DNA of 64,000 bases from a virus (lineage: Duplodnaviria > Caudoviricetes). The notes under the pieces were generated by a model. The model was given only the letters and a program-made list of their open reading frames with translations, was not told the DNA's origin and did no database searches. The position numbers and the translations under genes were made by a program. Of this stretch, positions 3,804 through 62,282 are shown one piece after another. Position 1 is the first letter of the stretch. Each line of letters opens with the position of its first letter. The stretch lies in the IMG/VR virus record IMGVR_UViG_2599185271_000005, positions 4,861-68,860 of that record. One strand, given 5' to 3'.

Positions 3804-3857
3804 AATAATATTCACACTATGTGAAAAGTCAAAGCTTTTATGTCACATCATGTGACA
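3804..3857 (-). promoter_or_regulatory. pL/oL-like promoter with two repressor operators
   Basis: TCACA-CTA-TGTGA (3812-3824) and TGTCACA-TCA-TGTGACA (3841-3857); minus-strand TTGACT-16 bp-TATTAT with one operator in the spacer. Confidence 0.8.
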
Positions 3858-4083
3858 ATAGATTTTCAATAGCCGCATCCAGAAGGCGGATATCGGACCG
3901 GCCCTCGGGTCCATCGGCCTCAAGCGTGGGCGCAACGCGGGCGCGGAGGCATCTGAGTTGAGCGAGGGGGGCTCCTGGATCCGATCGGGCGATCAGCGCC
4001 TCAATGTTCTCTGCGCTGGCGTCGGCAACGATGGAGGTGATGCGTGGATCAGCTTCAGAGGCGGAGTCGAAATCACATGGCAT
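3838..4083 (-). CDS. Hypothetical protein
   Basis: 81 aa ORF ending in the operator region; no motif recognised. Confidence 0.4.
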   Translation of the reverse strand: MPCDFDSASEADPRITSIVADASAENIEALIARSDPGAPLAQLRCLRARVAPTLEADGPEGRSDIRLLDAAIENLLSHDVT

Positions 4084-4209
4084 GGCTCAGGCCCTTTTCT
4101 CGCTCCAACCACCTCAGTCGCGTTAGAGTTGCAGCGGGTTGCACGCTTGTCAACGCAATTGAGTAAAACTATATCTATCGCCAATGGTTAGGTGAGATGG
4201 AGTGCGTGC

Positions 4210-4944
4210 ATGACGTATGGCAGAAGGATTGCAGCGCACGCCAAGCAGGTTACTGGCTTGCGGCGTCAGCAGGTGCAGCGGGTGCGCGCGGCGTGCCAAG
4301 CCCGCGAGCTTTCGACCCGGCAGGCGGGCCGCCTCGTCGGCCTTTCCCAGGTGCGCGGGCTCTTCGCCGACGACTGGGCCCCACCACAGGACGTGCTGGA
4401 CGCGCTCGAGGCCGCACTGTTCGGTGAAGACGATACCGGGCTGGAGCCGCTGCATGCCGCCACCATACCGTCGCAGGCGGCCGTGCGGCTGTGGGCGCCC
4501 AACCTCGTCGAGGCGGTCGAAGTCTGGCAAGGGGCCGGCGGAGTATGGTCTCAAAACGTGGCGGAAAAGCTCGAGAAGATCGGGTTGCTCGATCAATCGA
4601 CGCTGGTCCGGGACACGCCCCGGGGGCTCTATATCGAAGGTCGGCAGGATCGGCTCGGATACTGGCGCTCAGCCACGGCCGGCGGTGGCGGCGTGATGCT
4701 GTTCGACCGGCCGGACCCGGAATACAACGCCTTCGTCTTTAAGCGCGTGATGGGGGCTCTGGCGGCCGGTCAGCCGTCGATCGAGCGGTGCGCGGGCTGG
4801 TGCGGGTTGATCGGCATCAACCTGCGATATACAGCGGGTCTGTACCCGTTCGCGAAAGCGCAAGGTCGACCACCTGAGATCGTTCTGTCACTGGTGAAGC
4901 CCGATCCTGATCTAACACCGCCGCCGCAGCCGCCTTCCGCGTAA
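4210..4944 (+). CDS. Putative HTH + PAS-like (DUF1457/PAS_5-like) domain protein; paralog of 54625..55266
   Basis: N-terminal ELSTRQAGRLVGLSQVR (HTH-like); C-terminal DRPDPEYNAFVFKR..GQPS..CAG..YTAGLYP has PAS-like spacing and is shared with 54625..55266. Confidence 0.6.
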   Translation: MTYGRRIAAHAKQVTGLRRQQVQRVRAACQARELSTRQAGRLVGLSQVRGLFADDWAPPQDVLDALEAALFGEDDTGLEPLHAATIPSQAAVRLWAPNLVEAVEVWQGAGGVWSQNVAEKLEKIGLLDQSTLVRDTPRGLYIEGRQDRLGYWRSATAGGGGVMLFDRPDPEYNAFVFKRVMGALAAGQPSIERCAGWCGLIGINLRYTAGLYPFAKAQGRPPEIVLSLVKPDPDLTPPPQPPSA

Positions 4945-5596
4945 AGCCCTCGCTGGTCCACACCAGGTGCCGCACCTCGCCGCCCCACTCGATGCCGAGC
5001 GTGCGGGTCTCCACCGGCGGGTTGATCTTGGCCATGACCGCCTGTCGCGAGAACAGGAAGGTGCCGCGTGCGGCCCGGGTGGCGATGGCGAGCATGTCCG
5101 CAATCAGCGTCGCATACCGGATCCAGTCTCGGCTGAACGGCGTGCCGCCGCGGTTGTCGCGGGAGACCCACGCGTCGCCGGTGAAGCCCACCGTCCCCAT
5201 GATGGCTGATGCAAGCGTGAGAGCGTCACCCTCCAGCCGCATGCGAGGCCCGCCCTTGAACAGGCTGTTTTCGGCGAGGTACTGCGCAAGGCTGAGGTTC
5301 CCGAGGTCGTACATACCCATCTGCATGGCGCCCACGACATGGTCATCGCGCTCCGCCAGGATCCCGAAGACGTTGCTGGCCCAGGTCCGGCCTGGATCGA
5401 AGGCGCCGAAGACTGTTTCCGCACCACGCGAGAAGCCACGCGCGCGCTCGCCGTGGCGGTCATAGACGATTCGCACGCCGTGACGTTCTCGCAGCTTGAG
5501 GACGCAGTGAGCGACAAACTCGAGCGCTGATGTGTCGGTGGTTACGACCGGCGGAAGATCCTCGCCGGCATCCATGACTTCGGCCGCCTGAACCAT
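4817..5596 (-). CDS. Putative GNAT/acyltransferase-fold protein (LuxI/FeeM-like); paralog of 54018..54725
   Basis: RLEGDA..IMGTVGFTGDAWVSRDNRGG resembles GNAT motif A; GGAGG RBS; immediately downstream of cI on the same strand. Confidence 0.55.
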   Translation of the reverse strand: MVQAAEVMDAGEDLPPVVTTDTSALEFVAHCVLKLRERHGVRIVYDRHGERARGFSRGAETVFGAFDPGRTWASNVFGILAERDDHVVGAMQMGMYDLGNLSLAQYLAENSLFKGGPRMRLEGDALTLASAIMGTVGFTGDAWVSRDNRGGTPFSRDWIRYATLIADMLAIATRAARGTFLFSRQAVMAKINPPVETRTLGIEWGGEVRHLVWTSEGFTRKAAAAAVLDQDRASPVTERSQVVDLALSRTGTDPLYIAG

Positions 5597-5666
5597 CCCA
5601 AACCTCCGCCTGTCCGCCGACGTTAACTATAGCGCCGATTTCGCGGTTGAAGGCAGGGTTTCGATG

Positions 5667-5987
5667 CTACTGGGCGACTTTGGTGGGGCGGCCGCGCCTA
5701 GTCCCCTGATCGGCGCCCATCTTTTCCATGATGCGATTGTAGAGATCGTTCGGAAGAGCCCTCGGGTCGCCCCGGAAAATCCAGTCAAGCGAGATCCCGA
5801 ATCGTTCGCAAAACGGGATGAGCGCTATGGCGTTCGCCGCCCGCCGACCGTTTTCCCATTGGGACAGCCGGGTGCGCTCAATACCCCATGCCGAGAAATC
5901 GCTCTGCTCCAAGCCGGTGGCTTCGCGGCTGGCGCGGAGGCGCTTTCCCACCTCGATCATCACATCTGCATCGGTGCTCGGGTTCAT
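5667..5987 (-). CDS. CI-like repressor (XRE HTH, no peptidase domain)
   Basis: VGKRLRASREATGLEQSDF..IERTRLSQWENGRR..ISLDWIFRG; divergent from the cro-like gene. Confidence 0.9.
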   Translation of the reverse strand: MNPSTDADVMIEVGKRLRASREATGLEQSDFSAWGIERTRLSQWENGRRAANAIALIPFCERFGISLDWIFRGDPRALPNDLYNRIMEKMGADQGTRRGRPTKVAQ

Positions 5988-6000
5988 GACCGGATTATCG

Positions 6001-6060
6001 CCACACCGTGTGACCATGCACGTAACAAACGAGGCTTGCATTAAATGTCACACTATGTGA
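6001..6060. promoter_or_regulatory. oR-like operators between cI and cro
   Basis: TCACA-CTA-TGTGA (6048-6060, identical to the 3812 site) and degenerate CCACA-CCG-TGTGA (6001-6013). Confidence 0.8.
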
Positions 6061-6093
6061 AAAATAGCAGGAAGCTGATCGAGAGAGCACGAG

Positions 6094-6312
6094 ATGGTTA
6101 TCACCACGGCCTCGCAGTTCATTGATGAAATAGGTCCGGACGTCATCCGCGATCGTGTTGGCGGAAGCCGCAGTCGCATTGGCATGTGGAAGCTTAGGGG
6201 TTTCCCGGATAGCCGTGAGATTGACAGCCATCTTCGCCAACTCGCGGTTGAGGCGGGTAAGCAGGTCGACTGGTCTGCTGTTTATGCCGGCAAACCCAGC
6301 GAGGCCGCGTGA
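6094..6312 (+). CDS. Cro-like regulator
   Basis: 72 aa, ASQFIDEIG..IRDRVG..RIGMWKLRGFP pattern; divergent from cI. Confidence 0.8.
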   Translation: MVITTASQFIDEIGPDVIRDRVGGSRSRIGMWKLRGFPDSREIDSHLRQLAVEAGKQVDWSAVYAGKPSEAA

Positions 6313-8922: not shown

Positions 8923-10982
8923 TCCAGATCAGCCTGCGTCCAGCGCTGCGTTCCTATCTTGACGATCTCGTCGCGACTGGCGTCTACGGCGACACGCCGG
9001 GCGACGTGGCCCGTGCTCTGGTGGAGCGCGGCATTCAGGACGCATTGCGTGATCAGTTAATCACCGCCACGCGGAAAAATGAGGATGAGAAGGGTCTGCC
9101 GATTGCTGAGCCGGAGGACCGAGGTCGGGAAAGGCCGCTTCGGACTGAAGCGTTGGCGGCTCACCATCAGAAGAGCGGGGAACGGCTTTCACACCGCAGC
9201 CGCTCAGTGGCAGAGAAGAACAACGTTGCAGTCATCGCCGTGATCGAGGCGGTCGGCCCCAGGACATCATCAGCGGAAATCGCCGCTAGGACGGGCCTGG
9301 CCCGTCAGTCGGTCAAGCGGATCCTTAATAGGCTCGAGACCGACGGACGCATCCGAACGCAAGGCTGGGCACGATCTCGGATGTACTATGTGGGCGGCGG
9401 TGATGTTCCTCAGCCGCCGCGCAACGAAACAGTGTCCGTGAAGCCGAAAGGCAAGCGCGGCCGGCCCCGCGCCGATGAGCCGCGGCGCCGGTTCGAGGGA
9501 CGTATGGATCTGGAGCCTGAAAAGGTTCACGGATTGCCGGACGGCCATCCGGCGCTGACCGAAGAGCGGTCGCTTTTCCCCACCACGGTGATCCGGGCCA
9601 CCGAGACGCCTCGGGTGTTCGTCTCAGGACAGAACCAGCGCAAGCTCGGCGACCGCGTTTCCAAGGGGCCCTGGAAGGGTATGCCGATCTACGCGCTGAC
9701 CCTTGAAGAACGCGCGACCTGCCCGACAACATGTCACCACTGGAACACCTGTTTCGGTAACGGAATGCCGTTGGCCCGCCGCCATGCGCACGGGTTTGAA
9801 CTGGAGAGCCGTATAGAGCTCGAGGTCGACGACCTTGCACGATCACACAGCCAAGGGTTTGTGATCCGGCTGCACGTGCTCGGCGACTTCTACAGCGCTG
9901 ACTACGTCGAACTGTGGGGCCGGCTGCTCCAGTACCATCCCGCCCTTCACGTCTTCGGCTACACCGCCTGGACGCCCGATACCGAAATCGGCGCAGCCAT
10001 TGCCCGACTGCGCAGATCTGAGCCAGATCGCTTTGCCATCCGCAATAGTCTCCCTGACGTCTCCGCCCCGCAGGAGCGGCACATGGCAGCGACGACGATC
10101 TGGCGGGTCGCCCAAGGCCGACAGGCTGAAGGCATCGTGTGCCCAGCGCAGACACACCCAAGCGTTTGCTGCGGCTCCTGTGGTCTGTGCTGGCATCCGG
10201 AGATGCGCTCAACCCCGATCGCCTTCATTGCCCACGGCCGCAAGTCAGAATCCGCCGCGATCCAGGACGGAAGCGTATCAACCGTTGCGGCCGCGCCGAA
10301 AACTTATGTCCCGCACAGAAAGGGAGGGAACCCCGCCGGCCGCACCACTGACGCTTGGGACTCGGAGAGGATAGAACAACTCCGAAGTCTCGTTTCTCAA
10401 GGGCTCACCGCCAAGCAAATCGCCCACCGAATGGAGAAGACCAGAAACGCTGTCATCTCCAAGATTCGCAGCCAGGGGCTCAAGTTGCACACGCCGTCTC
10501 GGGGCGGAGTCAAGCGCGTTACCGGTAAGGTGTCGCCCGCCCGGAAGACCGAAACGCCGGCCTCCACTGCGCCAGAACTCGAGATGGTCCGGCCGCCGAA
10601 ACAAAAGTCGGTGAAGGGGCGCGCGCCAGGAGAAGGTTTGCGGCGCCCCCCGCCGCCGACACCAAAACCGAGCACCGCGTGGAAGCTAGAAAAGCCAGAC
10701 CACGCGGACGAGCGCGGCCAGATCGACGCTTGGCTGGCAAAGAATGGAGGCTCCGGAAGGCGGTTTGGCGCTGGAACACTATTGTCACAACTCCAAGACG
10801 CGTTCGGCAGCGTCGGCAAGCGTATCGAGTACAGCCCGAACCACAAGCGGGCGAACGCACCCTATGAGGTCGACGGCAAGCGGTGGATCAGCCTGGAGGC
10901 AGCCATCAAGGAAGCGGACAAGATCCGCGCAAAGCAGGGACGTGAGCCTATCCAGGCCCGGAAGCAAGGTCGGGCAGCATGA
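8919..10982 (+). CDS. Multidomain regulator-enzyme fusion: RHH + winged HTH + Cys-rich GP88-like domain + GcrA-like HTH
   Basis: QISLRPALRSYLDDLVATGVY (RHH); SSAEIAARTGLARQSVKRILNRL (wHTH); LTLEERATCPTTCHHWNTC..RLHVLGDFYS..CPAQ..CCGSCGLCW; WDSERIEQLR..GLTAKQIA..TRNAVISKI. Confidence 0.75.
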   Translation: MIQISLRPALRSYLDDLVATGVYGDTPGDVARALVERGIQDALRDQLITATRKNEDEKGLPIAEPEDRGRERPLRTEALAAHHQKSGERLSHRSRSVAEKNNVAVIAVIEAVGPRTSSAEIAARTGLARQSVKRILNRLETDGRIRTQGWARSRMYYVGGGDVPQPPRNETVSVKPKGKRGRPRADEPRRRFEGRMDLEPEKVHGLPDGHPALTEERSLFPTTVIRATETPRVFVSGQNQRKLGDRVSKGPWKGMPIYALTLEERATCPTTCHHWNTCFGNGMPLARRHAHGFELESRIELEVDDLARSHSQGFVIRLHVLGDFYSADYVELWGRLLQYHPALHVFGYTAWTPDTEIGAAIARLRRSEPDRFAIRNSLPDVSAPQERHMAATTIWRVAQGRQAEGIVCPAQTHPSVCCGSCGLCWHPEMRSTPIAFIAHGRKSESAAIQDGSVSTVAAAPKTYVPHRKGGNPAGRTTDAWDSERIEQLRSLVSQGLTAKQIAHRMEKTRNAVISKIRSQGLKLHTPSRGGVKRVTGKVSPARKTETPASTAPELEMVRPPKQKSVKGRAPGEGLRRPPPPTPKPSTAWKLEKPDHADERGQIDAWLAKNGGSGRRFGAGTLLSQLQDAFGSVGKRIEYSPNHKRANAPYEVDGKRWISLEAAIKEADKIRAKQGREPIQARKQGRAA

Positions 10983-23154: not shown

Positions 23155-23244
23155 GGAAGGGTGGCAGAGCGGCAATGCGTCGGCTTGCTAAGCCGTAGCC
23201 TGGGCTGAGTTCCAGCGCGGGTTCGATCCCCGCCCCTTCCGCCA
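23155..23244 (+). tRNA. tRNA-Ser(GCT)
   Basis: GGAAGGG/CCCTTCC acceptor, loop TTGCTAA, long variable arm, GGTTCGATCC, G73, CCA. Confidence 0.95.
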
Positions 23245-23253
23245 ACTGATCGC

Positions 23254-23340
23254 GGAGGGTCGCGCGGGATGGTCCGCAACCGGTCTCGAAAACCGGGCCA
23301 GCGCTCGACGTTGAGGGTTCGACTCCTTGGCCCTCCGCCA
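23254..23340 (+). tRNA. tRNA-Ser(CGA), non-canonical 8/4 fold
   Basis: Acceptor GGAGGGTC/GGCCCTCC (8 bp), anticodon arm CCGGT-CTCGAAA-ACCGG, T-arm AGGG-TTCGACT-CCTT (4 bp), G73, CCA. Confidence 0.88.
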
Positions 23341-23353
23341 TACATGGTCTACC

Positions 23354-23443
23354 GGGCAGGCGGCGCAGACGGCGAGTGGCGCACTGGTCTGTAAAACCAG
23401 CACATGGGAACCGCAGTAGGTTCGAATCCTACCCTGCCCACCA
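23354..23443 (+). tRNA. tRNA-Tyr(GTA)
   Basis: GGGCAGG/CCTGCCC acceptor, CTGGT-CTGTAAA-ACCAG, GTAGG-TTCGAAT-CCTAC, A73, CCA. Confidence 0.92.
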
Positions 23444-23448
23444 TCTTC

Positions 23449-23522
23449 GCGGTCTTGGCCGAGTGGTCAGGCACCGGGTTTCCACCCCGTTGACGTCAGT
23501 TCGAATCTGACAGGCCGCTCCA
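23449..23522 (+). tRNA. tRNA-Gly(TCC)
   Basis: GCGGTCT/AGGCCGC acceptor, loop TTTCCAC, GTCAG-TTCGAAT-CTGAC, U73, CCA. Confidence 0.93.
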
Positions 23523-51157: not shown

Positions 51158-51826
51158 ATGGCCGACTTTTACGCTCACGTCGTGGAGGGTGAAATCCTCC
51201 GCATCAATATCCGTGCCGGCACGACCTTCCAGGGATGGACGCCCGGCCCGAACGCCACCGACGCCGACTATCGGGCGCACGATCTGTGGCCGATCACCGG
51301 GACGCGGCCGGCCGGAACGCAGTGGCAGCGTGTCACCGGGCCGGTCTACGTAGCCGACACCGAGACCGAGACGGTGGAGCGGCAATACACGGTGACCGAC
51401 TTCACTTTGGCCGAACGCAAGGAGGTGATGCGAGCGGCCATTAACGAGGAGCGGGACCGGCGGATCTACCTGCCGATAGATGCGGTTGACATCAAGGGTG
51501 ATGGGTCCGTGATGGTAGAGCCGGATATACGCAATACCCGCGACGAGGCGAACCTGATCGCGCTGTCTCTGCGGGCCACACAGTTGGCCGCCGCGGAGAT
51601 CACCGATCCCGTCATGCCGTTCGGTGCGGCGGACAACATCGAGTACATGCTGACTCCAACGGAGATGATCGCGGTCGCGGCGGCGCCGTTCACCCGGGCG
51701 TCCGGGTTGTTTGTGCGGGCTCGTGCGTTGAAGGATGCGGTTGAAGATGCGGCGGATGGCGCCGACCTGGATCTGATCGACATCGCCGCCGGCAGCATCG
51801 ACAGCTCTGGCTCCTGGCCCAGCTAG
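51158..51826 (+). CDS. Tail fibre assembly-associated protein (DUF4376-like)
   Basis: INEERDRRI, ADN...LT..EM, RARALKDAV..A, C-terminal WP. Confidence 0.75.
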   Translation: MADFYAHVVEGEILRINIRAGTTFQGWTPGPNATDADYRAHDLWPITGTRPAGTQWQRVTGPVYVADTETETVERQYTVTDFTLAERKEVMRAAINEERDRRIYLPIDAVDIKGDGSVMVEPDIRNTRDEANLIALSLRATQLAAAEITDPVMPFGAADNIEYMLTPTEMIAVAAAPFTRASGLFVRARALKDAVEDAADGADLDLIDIAAGSIDSSGSWPS

Positions 51827-52239
51827 TCGCACCATCCCCGACGGGCGCCGCCATCGTAAACCCGAGCGAGCCCGGCCCGGACCAGCACAGTGCCCAGGTC
51901 TCGACCATCCGGCAGCGCTACATGGGCGTCGATGCGGCCACCGTACTTGTCCCAGCCGATCACATCGACGGTCACGACCTCCTCGCCCTTGAGCGCTGAC
52001 AGCACGAAGTCGCGGGCGGCACGGGCGTGAACCTTCTCGCGCTCGCACTTGCCGCGGATCTCGGGTGCGTCGATGCCCATCACCCTGATCGACATGCGCT
52101 GCAGGGATTCCGGCAGGCTCGGCACCAGGACATACAGGGTATCTGCATCGTAAGCCGCCGGTGACCGCAGCTTCACCGTCCACGGCTCTGCCACCGCCGG
52201 AGCGGCTATCAGGCACAGCAGGATCAGTAGATATCGCAT
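51823..52239 (-). CDS. Thermonuclease (SNase) family protein with signal peptide
   Basis: YDADTL, IRVMGIDAPE, DKYGGR, L..LVRAGLARVY; hydrophobic N-terminus. Confidence 0.92.
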   Translation of the reverse strand: MRYLLILLCLIAAPAVAEPWTVKLRSPAAYDADTLYVLVPSLPESLQRMSIRVMGIDAPEIRGKCEREKVHARAARDFVLSALKGEEVVTVDVIGWDKYGGRIDAHVALPDGRDLGTVLVRAGLARVYDGGARRGWCD

Positions 52240-52298
52240 AGCGAGAAGATCGGCCGCCCGGCCGGGAAGATCAAGCACTGACCTCTGGGGAGAGGCCG

Positions 52299-52652
52299 AT
52301 GACGTTTGAGGCATTGTGGGAGCTGCTGCGCTGGGGGGCAATCCCGCTTGGCGGTTTACTCATCTGGTGGGTCCGTGATCTGCGAGACCGCCAACGCCAC
52401 CAGGTGGAGCGGCTGCACGAGAAGATCGAAGCGGAAGCCCGCGCCCGCCATGCGGAGTCCGAGGCCTGCCGGCGCGAGCATCGAGAGGCGATCAAGACGC
52501 TCCACGATGATCTGAACTCCTGGAAGCTGGACGCGGCATCACGGTTCGCGTCAGCCGCTCACATGGAGCGGGGCTTCGAAAAGCTCGAGGCTGCGATCAC
52601 CGGCCTGGGCGCTCGCCTGGAGCGGTGGATCGAAGGCCGCCGGGACCTGTAG
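52299..52652 (+). CDS. Holin-like / membrane-anchored coiled-coil lysis protein
   Basis: Single N-terminal TM followed by coiled coil; precedes the endolysin. Confidence 0.6.
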   Translation: MTFEALWELLRWGAIPLGGLLIWWVRDLRDRQRHQVERLHEKIEAEARARHAESEACRREHREAIKTLHDDLNSWKLDAASRFASAAHMERGFEKLEAAITGLGARLERWIEGRRDL

Positions 52653-52674: not shown

Positions 52675-53250
52675 ATGCTGCCCAGCATCGACTGGAGTTT
52701 CATCGAGCCCCTGGAGGGTTTCGAGACGACCGGCTATGTCCCGGTCTCCGGCGGCGCCCCGCTGGGTATGTCGGGCGTCACAATCGGGTCCGGCGTGGAT
52801 CTCGGTCACTGGACGGTGGAGCAGCTCCGCCGCCGGCGCGTGCCGCAGCACATCATCGATGCGGTGGGTCCGTATCTCGGCATCCGTGGCTGGCCGGCGC
52901 TCCAGCTTGCCCGCGACCGGCCGTTGATCCTCTCTCCCGACGACGCCCGCATGCTGACCGACTGCATCCGCGGTGACATCGTCGATGCGGTCAAGAGCCG
53001 CTACGACAGCGCCGCCAAGGCCGCCGGCTCTCTGCGGTGGAACGCCCTGCCGGAGCCCTGCCGCACGGTGGTGACGTCGGTGGCATTCCAATACGGCCCG
53101 GCGCTCTCCTCGAGAACCCCGAACTTCTGGCGGCAGGTCACCGACGGCCGGTGGGCCGAGGCTCACGCGAATCTCATGAATTTCGGCGACGCCTATGAAA
53201 CCCGCCGCCGGAAGGAAGCCGACCACCTGGCACCGGTCCTGGTGCCCTAA
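52675..53250 (+). CDS. Endolysin, pesticin C-terminal-like muramidase
   Basis: IDWSFI..LEG....GYVP, SGVTIGSGVDLG, SVAFQYG..TPNFW, NFGDAYETRR.KEA. Confidence 0.92.
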   Translation: MLPSIDWSFIEPLEGFETTGYVPVSGGAPLGMSGVTIGSGVDLGHWTVEQLRRRRVPQHIIDAVGPYLGIRGWPALQLARDRPLILSPDDARMLTDCIRGDIVDAVKSRYDSAAKAAGSLRWNALPEPCRTVVTSVAFQYGPALSSRTPNFWRQVTDGRWAEAHANLMNFGDAYETRRRKEADHLAPVLVP

Positions 53251-53650: not shown

Positions 53651-54028
53651 GTGGAGCGCTTCCCCGACGAACTCGTCCTCAGAAAGCTGAACGGATCAGA
53701 GTGGGAGGTGCAAGCGCGCTTCCGCTATTGGTCCGCTCGGCTGCTGTGGTGGATCGAGGTGCCGGCCGGCTTCACCACTGATCTCGCCAGCATCCCCTGG
53801 TTCGGCCGCTGGTACGTCTCCGTCGACGGCGACCACACCAAGGCCGCCGTCGTTCACGACTACCTCTACACCCGGGCCAGCGCTGCCACCTTCCCGAGCC
53901 TCACCCGCCGTGAAGCCGACCGCGTCTTCCGCGAGGCACTCCGCCTGCGCGGTGTCGGCCCCATCAAGACATGGATCATGTACGCCGCCGTAAGAATCGG
54001 CGGGGGAAGGATGTACCGTGACGAGTAG
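53651..54028 (+). CDS. DUF1353 family protein
   Basis: VPAGFTTDLASIP, AAVVHDYLY, READRVF.EA, MYAAVRIGG. Confidence 0.93.
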   Translation: MERFPDELVLRKLNGSEWEVQARFRYWSARLLWWIEVPAGFTTDLASIPWFGRWYVSVDGDHTKAAVVHDYLYTRASAATFPSLTRREADRVFREALRLRGVGPIKTWIMYAAVRIGGGRMYRDE

Positions 54029-54725
54029 ACTTTACAGCCAGGCCGACGGCGAGGAGCCGCGGGGCATCGAGGCGCGGTTCCTGGAGCACATCGAGCGCGA
54101 AGGGTTGCGAGAGTTCGGGGTGGTGCCGTCGCTGACCAACGATCGCCAGCGGCTCAAGGAGCTGCACGGCGGCTCCCCAGGCTTCCCCGGGTGGCTGCCG
54201 ACTGCCGAGGGCGGTGCTGCCGGCTTCTGGGTCGACTGGCGGGACGACAGCGGCCGGACGCGAGCCACCGGTGGAGCGCTGCTCTACTCGACGGCGCCGG
54301 CCGATCTGTGCGAGTTCGTCAACGACGCCCACGGCATGGATGCTGCTGGCCACGAGATCCGGCTGGAAGGTGATGCAGCGCGGGAAGCAGCGAGGATCCG
54401 CGGGCCGGTGGTCTTCTCCGGCAACTTGGCGGTGTTCGACCCCGCCGACCGTGGCAAGGACGGATCAGGCCTGTCGAAGTGGCTGCTGCCGATCACGCCG
54501 CTCATGAACAAGGCGCTGGCCAACGGTCTGTGGGGCGAGCCAGCGGCATACGTGACGATCCTCCGGGATGTGCAGGTCGACCACCTCCAGCCGCACTATC
54601 GCCTGCCTACGCTGGCCGCTGGTGTCAGATGGCAAGTCCCTGGCCAGCAGGATCCAGTGCTCGGCCATCTCGGCGTGCAGTCACCCGATCACCTGCGGCA
54701 GGCGCTGACGGCTGCCCTATGCTGA
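54018..54725 (+). CDS. Putative GNAT/acyltransferase-fold protein; paralog of 4817..5596
   Basis: IRLEGDA..IRGPVVFSGNLAVFDPADRGKDG aligns with MRLEGDA..IMGTVGFTGDAWVSRDNRGG. Confidence 0.55.
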   Translation: MTSRLYSQADGEEPRGIEARFLEHIEREGLREFGVVPSLTNDRQRLKELHGGSPGFPGWLPTAEGGAAGFWVDWRDDSGRTRATGGALLYSTAPADLCEFVNDAHGMDAAGHEIRLEGDAAREAARIRGPVVFSGNLAVFDPADRGKDGSGLSKWLLPITPLMNKALANGLWGEPAAYVTILRDVQVDHLQPHYRLPTLAAGVRWQVPGQQDPVLGHLGVQSPDHLRQALTAALC

Positions 54726-55266
54726 CGACATGGGCGCCCGACGGCAGCATCAGCGCGGCGTAGGACACCAGCCCAGATCGACCAGGAAGGCGGCCGGCGC
54801 ACGACATGAAGCTCGGCCGACCCGACATACGAACAGCCAAGGCCCGGCTGTAGACAAAGCGGCCATACTCCGGCGTAGGCGCATCTACGACAGGCGCTCC
54901 CACCGTGCCGGGGTTCAGGACTGACAGCCTCTCGCCCACGCGGCTATAGACTGCTGTCGAGTTCGAAAAGTCGATGACCGCGTATCTCCGGTCCTCGCAA
55001 ATCTCCCCCAGACTATCGACCACGTCCTCGCCGGCATCCCAGCGCCGGAAGGCCTCCATCTGCGATCGCGACGCATACTTCGTGAACAGCGCCATGATGT
55101 CGTTGCCCACGAAAGGTTCGGCCACGCGCTCAGGCGTCACCAGATCCTTGGCGGTGTCGAAGACGACCTCTTCGACAGCCCTGCAGGCGACCCATGTTGC
55201 CGCGGCCAGGCCTACGGTCACGAACCGGCGGCTGAGGCGCGGTGCACTCTCAGTGTGCTGCGTCAT
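54625..55266 (-). CDS. Putative PAS-like domain protein; paralog of 4210..4944
   Basis: DAPTPEYGRFVYSR..GRPS..CAG..YAALMLP..VVS; GGAGG RBS; N-terminal SRRFVTVGLAAA. Confidence 0.6.
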   Translation of the reverse strand: MTQHTESAPRLSRRFVTVGLAAATWVACRAVEEVVFDTAKDLVTPERVAEPFVGNDIMALFTKYASRSQMEAFRRWDAGEDVVDSLGEICEDRRYAVIDFSNSTAVYSRVGERLSVLNPGTVGAPVVDAPTPEYGRFVYSRALAVRMSGRPSFMSCAGRLPGRSGLVSYAALMLPSGAHVVSIGQPSAPAAGDRVTARRDGRALDPAGQGLAI

Positions 55267-55526
55267 TCCTCCAACCCTCTGTCTCCCGCCTCTGCAAACG
55301 GGACTAAGATACCAATCGGCTCGCCAATTCGATGCAGTCCGCTGTGAGACCGCCTTTCAATACCAATGCAACGATAAACAACGCCGTCGATCTCGACTTC
55401 ATTGTCGATTAAATGAGAAAAATCATATGTGTCGCGGTCTAGAAAAGTCGTAAACGTCACGCCACGGCCTTTAGTGGGTATAACGTCTATCGAGTTGAAT
55501 GTTGGTCGGCTAAGCATCTCGGGCAT
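55263..55526 (-). CDS. Hypothetical protein
   Basis: 87 aa, operon-coupled. Confidence 0.65.
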   Translation of the reverse strand: MPEMLSRPTFNSIDVIPTKGRGVTFTTFLDRDTYDFSHLIDNEVEIDGVVYRCIGIERRSHSGLHRIGEPIGILVPFAEAGDRGLEE

Positions 55527-55776
55527 CCTTACGGAATAGGGCTTGCCACTGCTCGGCGGTTATCGGCCCAGCATCGTCGGTAATCGTAAAGCCAGAAGCC
55601 GTGAGAAGCATTTCAGTCCTGATGCGTCGCGCTTCACGAAACGCTTCTACCATTTGATCGGGCGGCAACGGTGACAGATCTGGATCACAACGCATCATCG
55701 CCGCGGCGTGCCGCAGCCGCATGGAATCCCTGAGGTGGATCTCGGCGCAGCAACAGTCGATTTCATGCTGTTCCAT
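55510..55776 (-). CDS. Hypothetical protein
   Basis: MEQHEID..., preceded by the GACATAGGGGCA motif. Confidence 0.6.
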   Translation of the reverse strand: MEQHEIDCCCAEIHLRDSMRLRHAAAMMRCDPDLSPLPPDQMVEAFREARRIRTEMLLTASGFTITDDAGPITAEQWQALFRKDARDA

Positions 55777-55787
55777 GCTCGCTGCCC

Positions 55788-56009
55788 CTATGTCAGTCGG
55801 CTCTCGTGGAAGGCCGCCCATTGAGCGATCGCCTCGCTGAGATCTTTCGCGGCCTGGATGTCCTCGCGGTTATCTCGCCGCCACACATGCCCGAAAGCGG
55901 CGGTCTTGCCTTCGCGATGGGCGCGCATCTCCAACACCAGATTAAAATCAAAGCGTTCGAGTAGTTCCAGCCGGCCGCTCCCATCTGCATTGCGATACAG
56001 CGTTCTCAT
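55788..56009 (-). CDS. Hypothetical protein
   Basis: MRTLYRNADGSG... Confidence 0.6.
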   Translation of the reverse strand: MRTLYRNADGSGRLELLERFDFNLVLEMRAHREGKTAAFGHVWRRDNREDIQAAKDLSEAIAQWAAFHESRLT

Positions 56010-56023
56010 GGCCCTTCGATCCC

Positions 56024-56233
56024 TTACTGAGTGTCGTGGAGAACGGCCGCGATCCGACGATAGATGCATGCGGCCTCGTCGCTCGATCCGTAGTATTGTC
56101 GAGCAAGCGCGCCGTAGAGAGCTGCTGTTCGTCGGATGCGGGGAGCGTCAGCGGCAAGCACAGCTTGGTCGAACTCAATCTGCGCCAAATCAAGCTGTGC
56201 GAGCGGGCTCAGTTTGGACAGTGCAGGCTCCAT
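56024..56233 (-). CDS. Hypothetical protein
   Basis: GGGAG RBS. Confidence 0.55.
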   Translation of the reverse strand: MEPALSKLSPLAQLDLAQIEFDQAVLAADAPRIRRTAALYGALARQYYGSSDEAACIYRRIAAVLHDTQ

Positions 56234-56254
56234 CGGCCGGTGCTCCCTTTCCGG

Positions 56255-56542
56255 TTATCCGCGACGGGTGGTGTTCGCCATCAAAGCGAACCACCGCGCG
56301 AGGTCTTTAGCTCCCGGCAAATCGGAGCACTCGATTACGACAAGATCGTGCTCGCCAAGGTGCACGACGCATCGCGGCATGGCGTCAATCTTGAACTCGT
56401 TGGATCGATCCAGAGGCACGACACGGGTGATCCGTGCAGGGTCGATCCACGACCCATCGGGCATCTCAATCAAGCCGCCGGAGTAGGCTTGCGGATCGGC
56501 AGGATTGCGCGACCAGTCGGTGATTTTCATGTCCTCCAGCAC
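56255..56542 (-). CDS. Hypothetical protein
   Basis: GACATAGGAGGC motif/RBS upstream. Confidence 0.65.
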   Translation of the reverse strand: MLEDMKITDWSRNPADPQAYSGGLIEMPDGSWIDPARITRVVPLDRSNEFKIDAMPRCVVHLGEHDLVVIECSDLPGAKDLARWFALMANTTRRG

Positions 56543-56561
56543 GGCGGCCTCCTATGTCCGA

Positions 56562-57122
56562 TTAAGCCGCCTGACGCTCACAGAGCGACCGCGCCCAGCT
56601 ACCTTGCCAGTCACAGCGACGACCGTAGCGGCGGTGCAGCAGTTTCATTTGCTCCAAATTATCGGCGCAAATGTCATCCCAGATATCGTGCCATACAGCG
56701 TCGTATCGGATGCCAACGGGCGGTCTCCAAGAAAGAGCATCTGCCTCGACTACAGTAAGGCGGGCGTCCGATATGTGCGGCGCCACCAGAGCAATCACAT
56801 CGGGTGACTTTTCAATTACCGTGACCTCTGTGACGATAGGCTTTTCCAGAACTTTCGTTGTGCAGTACCCCAGTCCAAGCCCGTTAATCAGGACGCGGCC
56901 TGACGCTTGGTGGATAAAGAAGCCGTGGTCGCGAATTTCTGCCGGAACGTCCGACATGATTACCCGCCCACGGCGTTTGAGAGCAGTGTACCGACCCGGC
57001 CGTATTGTGCGAGATCCAGGACTGAACGCTGCTCTAAGATTGTGAAATCTGGCGCCATCCTCGGTCACTTCAAAGTGCTCGATGGACCAGTCCCCAGATG
57101 CACCTTCGGGAATGTTCATCAT
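56562..57122 (-). CDS. Spermidine-synthase-like class I SAM-dependent transferase
   Basis: MSDVPAE, GRVLINGLGLG, VTVIEKSPDVI, YDAVWHDIW. Confidence 0.85.
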   Translation of the reverse strand: MMNIPEGASGDWSIEHFEVTEDGARFHNLRAAFSPGSRTIRPGRYTALKRRGRVIMSDVPAEIRDHGFFIHQASGRVLINGLGLGYCTTKVLEKPIVTEVTVIEKSPDVIALVAPHISDARLTVVEADALSWRPPVGIRYDAVWHDIWDDICADNLEQMKLLHRRYGRRCDWQGSWARSLCERQAA

Positions 57123-57195
57123 GGTCGGCCTCCGTTGTCTTGAATCAGTCAGTTTCGTCTGGGGTGATGGCTGTGATCTTCTCGGCCATCGGTTG

Positions 57196-57432
57196 TCAGG
57201 CTGCCGCGATCACGCGGCGTCCTAGCTCGGTCGGCACCCAAGTCGTGCGCATGGTGTTCGCGGGCTGGTCTTCGCTCTCCGCTATCAGCCCGCGTTCCAA
57301 CAGCGCGCGCAGGGTTGAGTTGCCGTTTGATCTTGTCAGACCATCGGGGTCGGCCGCACGGCGCAGATGATCGACCATGCGATGGCTAAGGCGTTTAGCG
57401 ATGCGCGCTGCGTCATCTTTCGGTTCGTGCAT
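57196..57432 (-). CDS. Hypothetical protein
   Basis: Repeat-A RBS directly upstream. Confidence 0.65.
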   Translation of the reverse strand: MHEPKDDAARIAKRLSHRMVDHLRRAADPDGLTRSNGNSTLRALLERGLIAESEDQPANTMRTTWVPTELGRRVIAAA

Positions 57433-57453
57433 CCCTGCCTCCGTTGTTCTGAA

Positions 57454-57759
57454 TCATTGTCCACAGGTCGGGCAGTCACCTTGCGAGGCGGCGCACCCGG
57501 AAAACACGCCCGGCTCAATCTCGATGCCGGGACACGGCGGGCCGCCATGAGCGGGGCAGGCAAGGCCCGGCACGTACCCGTCGTACTTGAAGTCACTACG
57601 GAACATCCTTCCGGTGTACCCATCCCTGAACATCGGGACTTCAGGGCGCTCACCAAAGGCGGGCTTATCGCAGAAGCACTCCATCCCAAACTGCCACATC
57701 GGCACCGAGCATTTGCCAACGCCGTCTGTCAGTTCGTAGTGGTGTTTTGAGCCACGCAC
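57454..57759 (-). CDS. Cys-rich hypothetical protein
   Basis: GKCSVPMW..CFCD.PAFGE..YVPGLACPAHGGP..CPTC. Confidence 0.75.
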   Translation of the reverse strand: MRGSKHHYELTDGVGKCSVPMWQFGMECFCDKPAFGERPEVPMFRDGYTGRMFRSDFKYDGYVPGLACPAHGGPPCPGIEIEPGVFSGCAASQGDCPTCGQ

Positions 57760-57783
57760 GGTCCTGCCTCCGTTGTTCGTCGG

Positions 57784-57942
57784 TTATCGCTCGCCGCCCA
57801 GGCGTTGAGTGGCGATGCGTTCAATTTCCTTCACGGCCTCGCGGATCATGGCGCACCGTCGGAGCGTGTTGTCCGCCCAATCACGATCGCTCATGGTTTC
57901 TGCCAACCCGGCGATCAGTTTGGCCTGTGCGTCGATGCTCAT
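57784..57942 (-). CDS. Small hypothetical protein
   Basis: MSIDAQAKL..., repeat-A RBS. Confidence 0.6.
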   Translation of the reverse strand: MSIDAQAKLIAGLAETMSDRDWADNTLRRCAMIREAVKEIERIATQRLGGER

Positions 57943-57968
57943 GGCCCCTGCCTCCGTTGTTTTGAATC

Positions 57969-58190
57969 TCAAACCAGTTCTTCGCCGGTGACCTCGCACC
58001 ACCGGCGACGGGCACGCGCCCAGGCCCCGACGAACTGCTGGACCGTGTGGGTTTGGGGCTCGCCGTAGAACCCTGCGGTCGCAGCGTCCATCTTGTCCGC
58101 AAGATCGCGAAGTTCGTCCGCCTCTGGCCCCTGAAAAGCTCGCATCCGATCCGGTAAGGACGGCGCTGTGTCGCTGACTGGTCCTGGCAT
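57969..58190 (-). CDS. Hypothetical protein
   Basis: GGAGG RBS in the repeat motif. Confidence 0.65.
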   Translation of the reverse strand: MPGPVSDTAPSLPDRMRAFQGPEADELRDLADKMDAATAGFYGEPQTHTVQQFVGAWARARRRWCEVTGEELV

Positions 58191-58200
58191 GTCCTGCCTC

Positions 58201-58530
58201 CTATGTCTGACTCTCGGCTTTGCCGCGCTCGTAAGCGGCTTCCGCTACATCCATGACGGCTCCGATCGCCACTGCCAAATGCGCCGGTACCTTCGGCTTG
58301 CCCGCTGTAATCCCGACCAGATAATCCAGCGACACCCCGAGGGCCGTGGCAATTGAAAGAGCGGTCGAGAGTGTGGGGTTGACCGCGCGCCCTTGCTCTA
58401 GCTCCCATACATGCGTCTTGGAGCATCCAGCACGGCGGGCCACTTCATCCAGGCTTAGGCGATGCTGCTTTCGCAAGTCGCGAATGCGCAGCGCCATGCC
58501 TGATGTATCGACAGTGTTGATGCCGGCCAT
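58201..58530 (-). CDS. XRE-family HTH regulator
   Basis: RIRDLRKQHRLSLDEVARRAGCSKTHVWELEQGRAVNPT..IATALGVSLDYL. Confidence 0.92.
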   Translation of the reverse strand: MAGINTVDTSGMALRIRDLRKQHRLSLDEVARRAGCSKTHVWELEQGRAVNPTLSTALSIATALGVSLDYLVGITAGKPKVPAHLAVAIGAVMDVAEAAYERGKAESQT

Positions 58531-58552
58531 GCCCTGCCTCCGTTGTTCTGAA

Positions 58553-58732
58553 TCAGTCGGCGCTAACGCTTTCGACAATCGGCCGCATCTGCTCAACGAT
58601 CTCGGGGAGAGCGCTGCGCAGAGCCAGGACGTGGATGTCGTCTCCCACGCTTGCGCCGTTGATCAGCATCGTTGTCACGTTCTCCAGCCGGTCGAACGCC
58701 AACCCGAGTTGCTCCAGTTCCTCGTCAGTCAT
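58553..58732 (-). CDS. Hypothetical protein (59 aa)
   Basis: MTDEELEQLGLAFDRLENV...; stop lies inside a repeat-A copy. Confidence 0.6.
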   Translation of the reverse strand: MTDEELEQLGLAFDRLENVTTMLINGASVGDDIHVLALRSALPEIVEQMRPIVESVSAD

Positions 58733-58750
58733 GTCCGTGCCCCTATGTCC

Positions 58751-58939
58751 TTAAGCGGCTACCACCGCGCTTTCCCATTCGCCGCACCAGTCTGAATCCT
58801 GGGTCATCGGCCACATAGCCAGACCGGTGCGATCATCAACGGCAGGAGGCCGCCGTCTGCACGTCGCCGTGGTGTCAGGCTCGGCGTGCGCGCTTTCCGT
58901 CGAGGTGTCCCAGAAGCGGCAGGTTTCGCAGCGTTTCAT
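58751..58939 (-). CDS. Cys-rich small phage protein
   Basis: CETCRFW..CRRRPP..WP.T..DWCGEW. Confidence 0.8.
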   Translation of the reverse strand: MKRCETCRFWDTSTESAHAEPDTTATCRRRPPAVDDRTGLAMWPMTQDSDWCGEWESAVVAA

Positions 58940-59008
58940 TGCTCGGTGCTCCGTTGTTTGTGGTCTGGCACTTACCGTCGCCCGACCTTGGCCGGGCGCT
59001 AGTAAGGG

Positions 59009-59203
59009 TCAAACCTGAGCTTCCGCTTTAAACCAGGTGCGCCCCGTCATGGCCCCCGCGCCGATGTGGCCGTCGCGCTCCGCCTTCCGCCGCGCAGACT
59101 TGATCGCATCGCGCTTGCTCTCGGCATCAATCTCGTAGGGTATGCCGTTAATTTCGTCCCACGCGGGGTGCTCGAAGCGAAGAGTCACGATGTAGGTGGT
59201 CAT
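59009..59203 (-). CDS. Hypothetical protein
   Basis: GGAG RBS, 64 aa. Confidence 0.65.
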   Translation of the reverse strand: MTTYIVTLRFEHPAWDEINGIPYEIDAESKRDAIKSARRKAERDGHIGAGAMTGRTWFKAEAQV

Positions 59204-59269
59204 GGCTTGTCTCCCGGTGCGTTGATAGGTATACTATGTACATTAAATCCCACTCCGTCAAGGAATAAA

Positions 59270-59446
59270 ATGTACATGAAAAAGCGCGGTCGCCCGAAAA
59301 AGGACGGGGTCATGATCCACAGGAAGATCGCGGCCGACGTGATCGAGGGGGCCGAGGAGGTCCGCGCGGAGGGCGAGACTCTTACCGACCAGATCGAAGA
59401 TGGTCTCCGGCGCCACATCGCCGCCCGCCGTCGAGCGAAGAAATGA
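59270..59446 (+). CDS. Ribbon-helix-helix-like small DNA-binding protein
   Basis: KKRGRPKK..IHRKIAADV..LTDQIEDGLRRHI. Confidence 0.65.
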   Translation: MYMKKRGRPKKDGVMIHRKIAADVIEGAEEVRAEGETLTDQIEDGLRRHIAARRRAKK

Positions 59447-59458
59447 TGGACAAAGCGC

Positions 59459-60618: not shown

Positions 60619-60941
60619 TGCTCACCCCCTTCGTTCATCTGACGAGAGGTTGGGCTTACGGTCTCGCCATCGCCGATCATGATTCCAATGAAGATCCGGT
60701 CGCTGATCTGGAAGCCGATAGCCCGACGCACCCGGCGAGCTAGGTACTCGGTAAACTCGCGCCGGTAGGCTCGGTCGATCCGCCACCACAGGAAGCCGAA
60801 CAGCGGGGCGCGCCGGGAGCGGTTCGGGAAGCTCCAGCCTGATATCGGATCACCGTCGCGTTCCTCATCCAAAGCCAACAGGCGGTCGATCTCTTCCTGG
60901 TTCAAAGGCGGGCGACTGTCTCGCCAATCAGCCATTTCCAC
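60615..60941 (-). CDS. Hypothetical protein
   Basis: Coupled ORF ending RQMNEGGEQ (repeat B). Confidence 0.6.
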   Translation of the reverse strand: MEMADWRDSRPPLNQEEIDRLLALDEERDGDPISGWSFPNRSRRAPLFGFLWWRIDRAYRREFTEYLARRVRRAIGFQISDRIFIGIMIGDGETVSPTSRQMNEGGEQ

Positions 60942-61320
60942 CTCCTTCGTTCATCTGACGAGCCGGATACCGCCCCTTGCGCCACGCCAGGAGCAGCAGG
61001 CGGCGCCGCACCTCGGCCGGACCGGTCCAGTAGAAGAGGCCGGACAGCGAGCGCAGGGTGTCGCTGTGCTGGCGGCAGTAGACCGGGCAGACGTGCGAGT
61101 GCTTCGTCGCGATCCGGGTCATGCCGCGCAGGCTGATCTTACGCAGCCCGCTGAAAACCTTTTTGACTGCCGGGCATCCCCACTTGTCCTGGGCGATGGC
61201 GTCGGCCGCCTCATATCCGAACTGCTGGCGGTAGTGGTCGAAGTTGACCAGGGCCGCTTGCAGGCCGACGGGCAGGTCATCAATCGGGAACTCATCCCGC
61301 ATCGTGGGGAGCATCGTCAT
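60928..61320 (-). CDS. Hypothetical protein
   Basis: GGAGG RBS; ends RQMNEGGGNG (repeat B). Confidence 0.65.
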   Translation of the reverse strand: MTMLPTMRDEFPIDDLPVGLQAALVNFDHYRQQFGYEAADAIAQDKWGCPAVKKVFSGLRKISLRGMTRIATKHSHVCPVYCRQHSDTLRSLSGLFYWTGPAEVRRRLLLLAWRKGRYPARQMNEGGGNG

Positions 61321-61694
61321 TCCTCCTTTTCGGACAGCCGACGACCGGGCTGCTTGCGGTCTAGGCAGTTCACGAGATTGTCGCCGTAGTCGGCTCCGCA
61401 AGCGGGGCATGGCCATTCAATTCTGACCTCGCGCACCAACCCGGCGTTGTACGGACATTGATGTTCGGGGCCACGCAACTCAGCCGCCCGGAGCATTAGC
61501 TTCCAGTTCTCTTCGGCCGTCCGGCCGGTAGCGTTGAGCGCCATGATCGGGGTCGGCACCTTCATCTCGTCAAAGACCTCGCGCGCCAAGTCCATGGCAG
61601 CGTTCTTTCGGCCGGGCGTGAGCGCGTCCCACGCCTTCGGGTCGCCGGTCAGTTTCGTGTGGATACGACGCGCTACGCGCTCAACCATTTCCAT
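61317..61694 (-). CDS. Hypothetical protein with C-terminal zinc ribbon
   Basis: MVERVARRI..., CPY..CPACG..C. Confidence 0.7.
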   Translation of the reverse strand: MEMVERVARRIHTKLTGDPKAWDALTPGRKNAAMDLAREVFDEMKVPTPIMALNATGRTAEENWKLMLRAAELRGPEHQCPYNAGLVREVRIEWPCPACGADYGDNLVNCLDRKQPGRRLSEKEE

Positions 61695-61727
61695 CGGAAC
61701 CTCCGTCGTTCATCTGACGACCGGACA

Positions 61728-62281: not shown

Positions 62282-62282
62282 G

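Follow-up and report, generated by a model that had tools for sequence, protein, structure and literature searches.

A convergent GNAT-fold enzyme and PAS-partner gene module, present as two distant copies in an alphaproteobacterial prophage, as a candidate small-molecule synthase and sensor pair

The stretch of DNA analysed here (the window, 64,000 nt, 64% GC; IMG/VR record IMGVR_UViG_2599185271_000005, positions 4,861 to 68,860) belongs to a prophage and carries two pairs of genes that face each other tail to tail and overlap at their 3' ends. In each pair, one gene encodes an enzyme with a putative GNAT fold and the other a partner with a putative PAS-like domain, and we refer to them as enzyme A and partner A (pair A) and enzyme B and partner B (pair B). 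The open reading frames (ORFs) of the two pairs are as follows.

4210..4944, + strand: partner A, 244 aa from the ATG at 4210, which is the start of the database protein P0003
4817..5596, - strand: enzyme A, 259 aa, with GGAGG 6 nt before the ATG
4817..4944: 3' overlap of pair A, 128 nt, computed from the ORFs
54018..54725, + strand: enzyme B, 235 aa
54625..55266, - strand: partner B, 213 aa
54625..54725: 3' overlap of pair B, 101 nt

An earlier note, made from the letters of the window, had described two convergent, 3'-overlapping pairs at these positions; the overlaps of 128 and 101 nt bear this out, and the peptide strings that it quoted for the enzymes and the partners were found in the four translations. 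In the frame of partner A, the ORF listing also gives an earlier GTG start at 4192, which would yield 250 aa. The overlap of pair A corresponds to residues 203-244 of the partner (its tail and the two PAS strands before it) and to residues ~218-259 of the enzyme (the disordered tail and the terminal part of the helix preceding it). By GC content at the three codon positions (GC1 to GC3), all four ORFs have the high-GC1, low-GC2, high-GC3 pattern, with GC3 of 0.72-0.81 versus GC2 of 0.50-0.55, and each of them has full-length homologues elsewhere.

The second pair had been taken for a duplicate of the first. Pairwise alignments of the paralogues are significant, with BLASTP E=4e-4 (15/48 identical) for the enzymes and E=1e-7 (16/39 identical) for the partners. 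Profile tests were run with the scored target left out of each profile and Z=1. With a hidden Markov model (HMM) of three chromosomal paralogues, the values are 7e-18 for enzyme A and 1.4e-14 for enzyme B, and an enzyme HMM of A-type sequences only gives 7e-6 for enzyme B; on the partner side, partner B reaches 2e-7 with the A-type HMM and partner A 4e-8 with the B-type HMM. The aligned enzymes are ~21% identical, and in a FastTree phylogeny of 81 family members they fall into different clades, each with support 1.0. Because the clades are separate, A and B do not result from a recent duplication, so that the homology of both sets of genes stands and the recent duplication does not. Judged from these sequence comparisons, the paralogy of A and B is real but old, and the prophage is host to two distant members of one module family, not to a duplicated pair.

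The enzyme family was surveyed with a 33-sequence profile in genome samples of the order, class and phylum of the host, an alphaproteobacterium of marine type that is not pathogenic. It was found in 37/63 genomes of the host's order (10/17 genera), in 33/401 genomes of the class sample (25/307 genera) and in 15/401 genomes of the phylum sample (14/212 genera), and 14 of the latter 15 genomes are from the host's class. There are up to eight enzyme copies per genome, and seven in the window's own genome. Linkage to a partner was examined at 48 fetched loci (L009-L056), which include relatives and are not independent, using a partner HMM that was iterated. The earlier note had expected homologues to co-occur as pairs, and a convergent, adjacent partner is present at 39 of the 48 loci, with the frames overlapping at 32 and lying 8-84 nt apart at 7; before iteration of the HMM, the counts were 20/30 and 8/18 loci. 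At four further loci the partner is two genes off, beyond an EamA transporter, at one it is on the same strand, and at four enzyme-only loci (L026, L048, L050 and L056) the iterated HMM found no partner. By a tally of genus labels in the order and class samples, the convergent pairs span 20 genera. One of them, the C14 pair, recurs in 8/10 genomes of the host's genus (E ~1e-73 to 1e-79), the remaining two genomes being of 1.5 Mb. None of the four window proteins has a credible match in Pfam, PHROGs, PADLOC or NCBIfam. As a two-gene module, the pair is conserved in Alphaproteobacteria and has no family annotation.

The other gene contexts of the enzyme involve regulators, transporters and sensors. 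An EamA gene lies between enzyme and regulator at L006 and L017; an oxygenase-like label considered for a 353-aa neighbour in L017 was not confirmed by Pfam and is left unused. Three loci without a PAS partner (L078, L080 and L081) have the enzyme beside an upstream LysR gene, with MFS or MatE transporters near. At L048 (genome G071; 8-1453, + strand), the enzyme is convergent to a bacteriophytochrome histidine kinase with GAF, PHY (5e-51), HisKA_2 and HATPase domains. Such neighbourhoods speak for the making or modification of a small molecule by the enzyme, a molecule that is probably exported and linked with a sensor of its own. Relatives were not found in GenBank phages, PLSDB plasmids or IMG/VR, nor, with the A-type enzyme profile, in JGI metagenomes or GTDB genomes, all of which are scans that reach close relatives only. 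In addition, the host genome (100% complete) has no match to the LuxI family, which the same search finds in 24/151 genomes of the class (the unpublished genome G102 is counted in). The few genomes common to both samples, too small a set to be informative, gave no sign that LuxI and the module are distributed in a complementary way.

The structural evidence on enzyme A and partner A comes from predicted models. The AlphaFold2 model of enzyme A has a predicted local distance difference test score (pLDDT) of 84.5 and a predicted template-modelling score (pTM) of 0.82, with residues 234-259 predicted to be disordered. A Foldseek search of this model against the PDB gave nothing at E<=1e-3; GNAT proteins make up nearly all of the top rows, which start at E 2.6e-3, and the list includes the acyl-homoserine lactone (AHL) synthases RpaI, BjaI and EsaI (E 4e-3 to 2e-2) amid many acetyltransferases, and FeeM too. 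Among the 50 matches listed by VIA-align, a search that does not depend on Foldseek, almost all are acetyl- or acyltransferases or GNAT proteins (Z 8.6-10.9). Glyphosate N-acetyltransferase is the top row (Z 10.9), the 'bacterial toxin' 7byy reaches Z 10.3 (Foldseek E 3e-3), and FeeM (2g0b) has Z 9.5 with a root-mean-square deviation (rmsd) of 4.1 over 166 residues, the longest aligned stretch listed; RpaI, BjaI and EsaI are not among these 50. The structure neighbours in the ESM Atlas include FeeM-type clusters, taken as a lead only, and the viral structures of BFVD gave generic GNATs only (best E 5e-3). The predicted model and the predominance of GNAT matches thus support a GNAT fold for the enzyme, as had been guessed; this fold is a mixed alpha/beta arrangement of the order beta1-alpha1-alpha2-beta2-4-alpha3-beta5-alpha4-beta6-7.

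At the sequence level, an HMMER scan of 1.84 billion cluster representatives found 36 relatives of the enzyme at E<=1e-3, 13 of them at <=1e-10, and the resulting alignment underlies the AlphaFold2 model of enzyme A. Pfam yielded a credible match (E<=0.1) for 0/33 family members and nothing for the window proteins at E<=1. A search of PDB sequences with the family profile returned designed SAKe proteins only, and these were taken as repeat or composition artefacts. The family has the signature F.G..WV.PD.RG, in which G140 is invariant and R149 is conserved in at least 90%, while the following glycines vary. GNAT proteins carry a pyrophosphate/acetyl-CoA loop motif, Q/R-x-x-G-x-G/A, after beta4, and the signature is presumably located where GNATs bind the CoA pyrophosphate.

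In the predicted model of partner A (AlphaFold2, pLDDT 79), an N-terminal helical domain, an XRE-like helix-turn-helix (HTH) at residues ~1-75, is followed by a C-terminal PAS-fold domain at ~80-235; its homologues P0004-P0006 are 41-58% identical. Foldseek gave 14 matches at E<=1e-3, those listed being LOV/PAS proteins with a best E of 4e-5, and VIA-align gave PAS/Cache sensors at a middling Z of 5.8-8.0, so that the PAS fold proposed earlier, an antiparallel sheet of five strands with helices at its sides, agrees with both searches. The VIA-align matches include the ligand-bound receptors VqmA-DPO of a phage (7dwm_B, Z 7.5) and RpfR-BDSF (6dgj, Z 6.0). An N-terminal HTH had also been proposed, and in the predicted structure it is backed by XRE regulators that match this end in VIA-align (2o38, Z 7.4; 9u9g, Z 6.0) and by HTH_3-type entries in 10/10 ESM Atlas structure rows, the latter a lead only. 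Partner A itself has no Pfam HTH match at E<=1, and the partners of the chromosomal paralogues match HTH_3 at 2e-5 to 3.5e-7.

The more specific guess of a PAS_5 domain (PF07310) holds at the family level and fails for the window. Among 44 partner-family members compared with Pfam, three match PAS_5 (best 6e-12), five match HTH_3 and four match Xre-like-HTH weakly; neither window partner matches PAS_5 at E<=1. The host genome has 42 PAS_5 matches, 0 of them at pair loci. With so many matches off the pair loci and so few in the family, the partners therefore form a related but separate branch. The 42 host PAS_5 proteins are mostly stand-alone proteins of ~165-260 aa and amount to a large expansion; a literature search on PF07310 found no functional study.

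The picture of an HTH regulator breaks down for partner B, in which the N-terminus has no HTH and consists of two arginines and a hydrophobic stretch, followed by a PAS-like domain. The consensus of twin-arginine translocation (Tat) signals is a twin-arginine motif followed by a moderately hydrophobic stretch. All six B-type partners (6/6) have the two arginines and then a 13-aa stretch with a mean Kyte-Doolittle value of 1.25-2.05, and in 5/6 a Cys comes directly after it. From its sequence, the B-type N-terminus resembles a Tat signal and may belong to a lipoprotein. No signal sequence is present in enzyme B. If the enzyme is cytoplasmic and the PAS protein exported, the combination suits neither a transcription factor nor an antitoxin that acts directly. 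Longer partners of 480-580 aa occur at L057, L059 and L061 (own C17; G045 and G046), with a weak, sub-threshold DUF4983-like stretch before the PAS domain; the enzyme ORFs at the same loci continue upstream as long open frames (429-533 aa), perhaps an artefact of start-codon choice, perhaps a true extension of the N-terminus.

The surroundings of pair A are those of a phage immunity region, with the following features.

3805..3858, - strand: oL/pL-like control region, with two operators and a leftward sigma-70-like promoter
3812-3824 and 3843-3855: oL-like operator palindromes, TCACANNNTGTGA, both exact
3838..4083, - strand: 81-aa ORF between partner A and oL, with a GC3 of only 0.57, a doubtful gene
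5667..6041, - strand: cI-like XRE repressor (HTH_19, HTH_31 and HTH_3 at E 1e-6 to 8e-6; PHROG transcriptional repressor at 4e-11)
5998..6063: oR-like operators at 6001-6013 (one mismatch) and 6048-6060 (exact), between cI and the ORF 6094..6312 (+ strand)

At one mismatch or fewer, TCACANNNTGTGA has six matches in the window versus 0.91 expected, and 0/100 shuffles reach six. The leftward promoter-like site (3832 to 3805; TTGACT, 16 nt, TATTAT; 10/12 matches) overlaps the left operator pair, and the cI-like repressor would act on the oL-like operators. The genes within 3805-6063 are, in order, the 81-aa ORF, partner A, enzyme A and the cI-like repressor, so that the whole of pair A is flanked by operator pairs, two oL-like and two oR-like. 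Since the operator repeats and the promoter-like site bracket both cI and pair A, we regard 3805-6063 as the immunity region. Translation of the cI-like gene probably starts inside the ORF, at an ATG near 5987, and both right-hand operators would then be intergenic. The small rightward ORF 6094..6312 is divergent from the cI-like gene. Enzyme A lies on the cI strand, directly downstream after a gap of 70 nt in which no terminator-like site was found, and it is plausible that cI and enzyme A are co-transcribed in lysogens. Lambda rexAB are located between cI and oL, and the earlier comparison with that position is sustained by the place of pair A inside the immunity region, between the operator pairs, with the enzyme behind cI on the same strand. 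The 81-aa ORF has no family match in Pfam or PHROGs and may be no gene. Its stop abuts the operator at 3843-3855, and the same operator is a terminator-like hairpin on the + strand (3841-3857).

Pair B lies downstream of the tail and lysis genes, where each of its two genes is the last of one of two converging blocks. The neighbouring genes upstream of enzyme B are listed below.

51823-52341, - strand: staphylococcal-nuclease (SNase) homologue, 7e-9
52675-53250, + strand: endolysin of the Pesticin/phage-lysozyme family, 9e-40
53651..54028, + strand: DUF1353 gene (PF07087, E 1e-28), sharing its last 11 nt with the start of enzyme B

Enzyme B is the final gene of the rightward late/lysis block, and partner B is the final gene of a leftward block, its start overlapping the upstream ORF 55263..55526 by 4 nt. 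A second prophage, L062 from a Thalassobaculum metagenome-assembled genome, has a B pair in the equivalent place (enzyme 74% and partner 56% identical), and there the overlap is also 101 nt (9506-9606). Beyond pair B, a block of small leftward genes extends over 55263-62741 (- strand), in which 60928..61416 is 81% identical to a gene in L062. Because of this counterpart, pair B can be placed inside the phage genome and not at its end. In another prophage, L026 (genome G005), a DUF1353 gene (2117-2494, - strand) is again followed by an enzyme copy that overlaps it; in this case an Abi_2-like gene (842-1543, + strand; PF07751, E 1.4e-5, marginally over the cut-off) faces the enzyme tail to tail, overlaps it and replaces the PAS partner. 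The enzymes behind DUF1353 in the window and in L026 are of different subtypes, and the adjacency in two prophages suggests either a recurrent insertion spot or a functional link. Elsewhere in the window, four tRNA genes (Ser-GCT, Ser-CGA, Tyr-GTA and Gly-TCC) occupy 23155-23522, between the early-right genes and the terminase and late genes.

Several known systems resemble the module in part. EsaI/EsaR and ExpI/ExpR are convergent, 3'-overlapping LuxI/LuxR pairs. Like EsaI/EsaR, the present pairs combine a synthase-sized, GNAT-fold enzyme with a sensor-regulator that it meets and overlaps tail to tail, and EsaI appears in the Foldseek list of enzyme A with TM scores of 0.41 by query and 0.52 by target (E 2e-2). 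The sequences, however, are unrelated (hhalign 0.2%), the invariant columns of the LuxI alignment have no counterpart among those of the enzyme family, and the partner has a PAS fold in place of the LuxR autoinducer-binding domain. FeeM synthases are similar in size, have a GNAT-derived fold (2g0b, Z 9.5) and recur in the ESM Atlas clusters, whereas none of the 33 family members has a FeeM match in Pfam and the Z of 9.5 is tied with that of many plain acetyltransferases. Fee clusters have an acyl-carrier-protein-linked gene context, which was not seen in the module flanks that were read. VqmA-Phi of phage VP882 is a PAS and HTH receptor of the host signal DPO. It is thus, as partner A is predicted to be, a phage one-component receptor of this composition (7dwm_B, rmsd 3.6 over 112 residues, with a Z of 7.5 that is within the common PAS range); in partner A, by contrast, the HTH comes first and is XRE-like, not LuxR-type, and here the candidate synthase is phage-borne as well.

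The likeness to lambda rexA/rexB lies in two genes between cI and oL/pL with the first co-oriented with cI; unlike rexB, the second gene is convergent, not co-directional, and the folds are GNAT and PAS. At E<=1 in Pfam and PHROGs, no match to Rex families or to any other family was found beyond chance-level rows. The GNAT toxin systems TacAT, AtaRT and KacAT are co-directional antitoxin-toxin operons with a ribbon-helix-helix (RHH)/DUF1778 antitoxin. They share with the module the GNAT fold (7byy, Z 10.3) and contexts in mobile elements, but the module is convergent, its partner is HTH-PAS or Tat-PAS, its enzyme is ~60-80 residues longer, enzyme-only loci exist, and PADLOC gives no match. A search of the literature found no paper describing such a GNAT-plus-PAS gene pair.

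A parallel in gene layout comes from the quorum-sensing switch modules of Roseobacter prophages, in which lysogeny-expressed xre-luxR-luxI operons lie opposite an hth gene, according to a recent preprint (Bunsick et al. 2026, bioRxiv 10.64898/2026.07.02.736140). Those modules too belong to alphaproteobacterial temperate phages and behave as exchangeable cassettes, and in both cases an XRE repressor-type gene is divergent from a small hth/cro-type gene, with accessory genes behind it on the lysogeny strand for an enzyme of GNAT fold and a regulator that senses, or here would sense, a ligand. The corresponding layout in the window is cI (- strand), enzyme A (- strand) and the divergent small ORF 6094..6312 (+ strand). 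The window pairs differ in that they have no LuxI/LuxR homology, the receptor is of HTH(XRE)-PAS type and convergent to the enzyme instead of in the same operon, the cI-like repressor is separate and has its own operators, and the autoinducer is putative. By this analogy, pair A would be a functional analogue of the xre-luxR-luxI modules built from unrelated families.

Taken together, we tentatively favour the reading that the module is a small-molecule synthase with a cognate PAS sensor, and that prophage copy A is wired beside the repressor. The enzyme would draw on an acyl donor and produce a small acylated compound, probably derived from an amino acid or an amine, and the PAS domain of the cognate partner would bind this product or its precursor. 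A partner with an XRE-type HTH, such as partner A, would then be a one-component transcription factor. Enzyme A would share a transcript with the cI-like repressor and hence be made in lysogens, and partner A would be expressed from an opposite promoter of its own and tie phage or host gene expression to the amount of the molecule; the tail-to-tail overlap may add mutual transcriptional interference. Pair B must work somewhat differently, since it occupies a post-lysis site and its partner looks exported and has no HTH; partner B may be a periplasmic binder of the product or a sink for it. A far-reaching version, in which the module is an unrecognised, LuxI/LuxR-free form of alphaproteobacterial signalling with new families of both synthase and receptor, one copy of which the phage has put into its immunity region and by which lysogens broadcast and sense a phage-specific molecule for the lysis-lysogeny or superinfection decision, with an exported-receptor version in the late region, seems to us rather doubtful.

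A number of observations weigh against a synthase and sensor. The relation to LuxI or FeeM suggested earlier did not hold as sequence membership: neither a match to the LuxI profile (PF00765) nor the conserved N-terminal Arg/Trp/Asp residues of AHL synthases were found, an hhalign comparison of the family (33 sequences) with LuxI (10 sequences) gave a probability of 0.2% (E 0.28), and 0/33 family members match FeeM (PF21926), Acetyltransf_1, _3, _5, _7, _10 or other Pfam GNAT models. The best structural matches are ordinary N-acetyltransferases and the 'bacterial toxin' 7byy (Z 10.3), and because these are the closest structures the fold gives no pointer to a signal synthase in particular; the canonical acetyl-CoA loop is only partly kept in the family, with R149 nearly invariant and the glycines variable. 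Partner B, without an HTH and exported-looking, is therefore no transcription factor and may be in another compartment than its enzyme. Up to eight enzyme copies per genome are unusual for quorum sensing and likelier for mobile or defence genes, and cI-adjacent and post-lysis sites are also classic for exclusion and defence genes, with the L026 enzyme copy standing beside an Abi_2-like gene. As to linkage, four of the five additional loci that came from the phylum sample had no partner detected within 1.5 kb, and the later partner E-values are partly circular because the HMM was iterated on the same ORF set.

Several of these points lead to an alternative that we consider somewhat unlikely, namely a lysogen-protecting toxin/antitoxin, abortive-infection or RexAB-like exclusion pair, in which the GNAT would acetylate an essential target (such as charged tRNA) or a phage component and the PAS partner would restrain or trigger it. 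The rexAB-like cI-oL position of pair A and the accessory-gene site of pair B behind the lysis genes would suit such a pair, as would the many divergent copies (up to 8 per genome), the place of 7byy among the best structures (Z 10.3; Foldseek E 3e-3), the weak matches of 4/44 partners to the antitoxin family Xre-like-HTH, and the Abi_2-like gene convergent to the L026 enzyme copy. PADLOC, however, matches none of the four proteins, and in known GNAT toxins the operon is co-directional and the toxin has ~160-180 aa, versus a convergent layout and ~230-260 aa here. A lethal toxin fits poorly because the C14 pair is kept in 8/10 genomes of the host's genus, vertically, and enzyme-only loci occur (4/48 and, in the extra set, 4/5); moreover, an exported-looking partner B would be unable to neutralise a cytoplasmic toxin, and the transporter-linked variants suit a metabolite better. 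The same transporter-linked arrangements, with LysR, MFS, MatE and EamA, resemble resistance or efflux operons, and together with the generic GNAT fold, the top VIA-align row (glyphosate N-acetyltransferase, Z 10.9) and the broad vertical presence in 37/63 genomes of the host's order they speak for a metabolic or detoxifying N-acetyltransferase with a sensor-regulator. This enzyme would act on an imported or toxic compound, either an amine or an analogue of an amino acid, with the PAS regulator sensing that substrate, and the copies in the prophage would serve the lysogen as useful cargo, unwired to the phage switch. We judge it unlikely: an overlapping convergent layout, seen in 32/39 convergent pairs, would be odd for substrate-induced operons, pair A lies within an operator-bounded immunity region and is co-oriented with cI, and partner B is without a DNA-binding part.

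Decidedly unlikely, in our view, is that the enzyme acylates or acetylates protein, with the PAS partner as its substrate (by acyl or chromophore loading) or regulatory subunit, or with another host or phage protein as target. The top structures do include the protein N-terminal and lysine acetyltransferases NatD, Naa10, Ard1, RimI and RimJ, the two genes are tightly coupled, and at L048 the gene convergent to the enzyme encodes a bacteriophytochrome kinase, which binds a chromophore. One Cys of the PAS core (C194) is invariant in a 13-sequence alignment of A-type, B-type and own-genome partners, but it is not among the columns conserved to at least 60% across 52 partner domains, and a universal acylation site at this Cys was dropped for that reason. 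Export is probable for partner B, but enzyme B lacks a signal sequence, and the transporter-linked variants suggest a diffusible product.

The families of the module are unmodelled in Pfam, NCBIfam, PHROG and PADLOC, yet they stand tail to tail in 20 alphaproteobacterial genera and the enzyme occurs in most genomes of the host's order. If the reading as a synthase and receptor pair is true, the module would be a new chemical language for bacterial and phage communication, and, next to the xre-luxR-luxI modules reported in 2026, a second, independent case of a phage synthase and sensor in a repressor operon. If instead it is a defence or toxin pair, it would represent a new class with a ligand-sensing PAS regulator. 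The module is conserved and amenable to experiment, and it stands at a position of key importance for regulation in a temperate phage.

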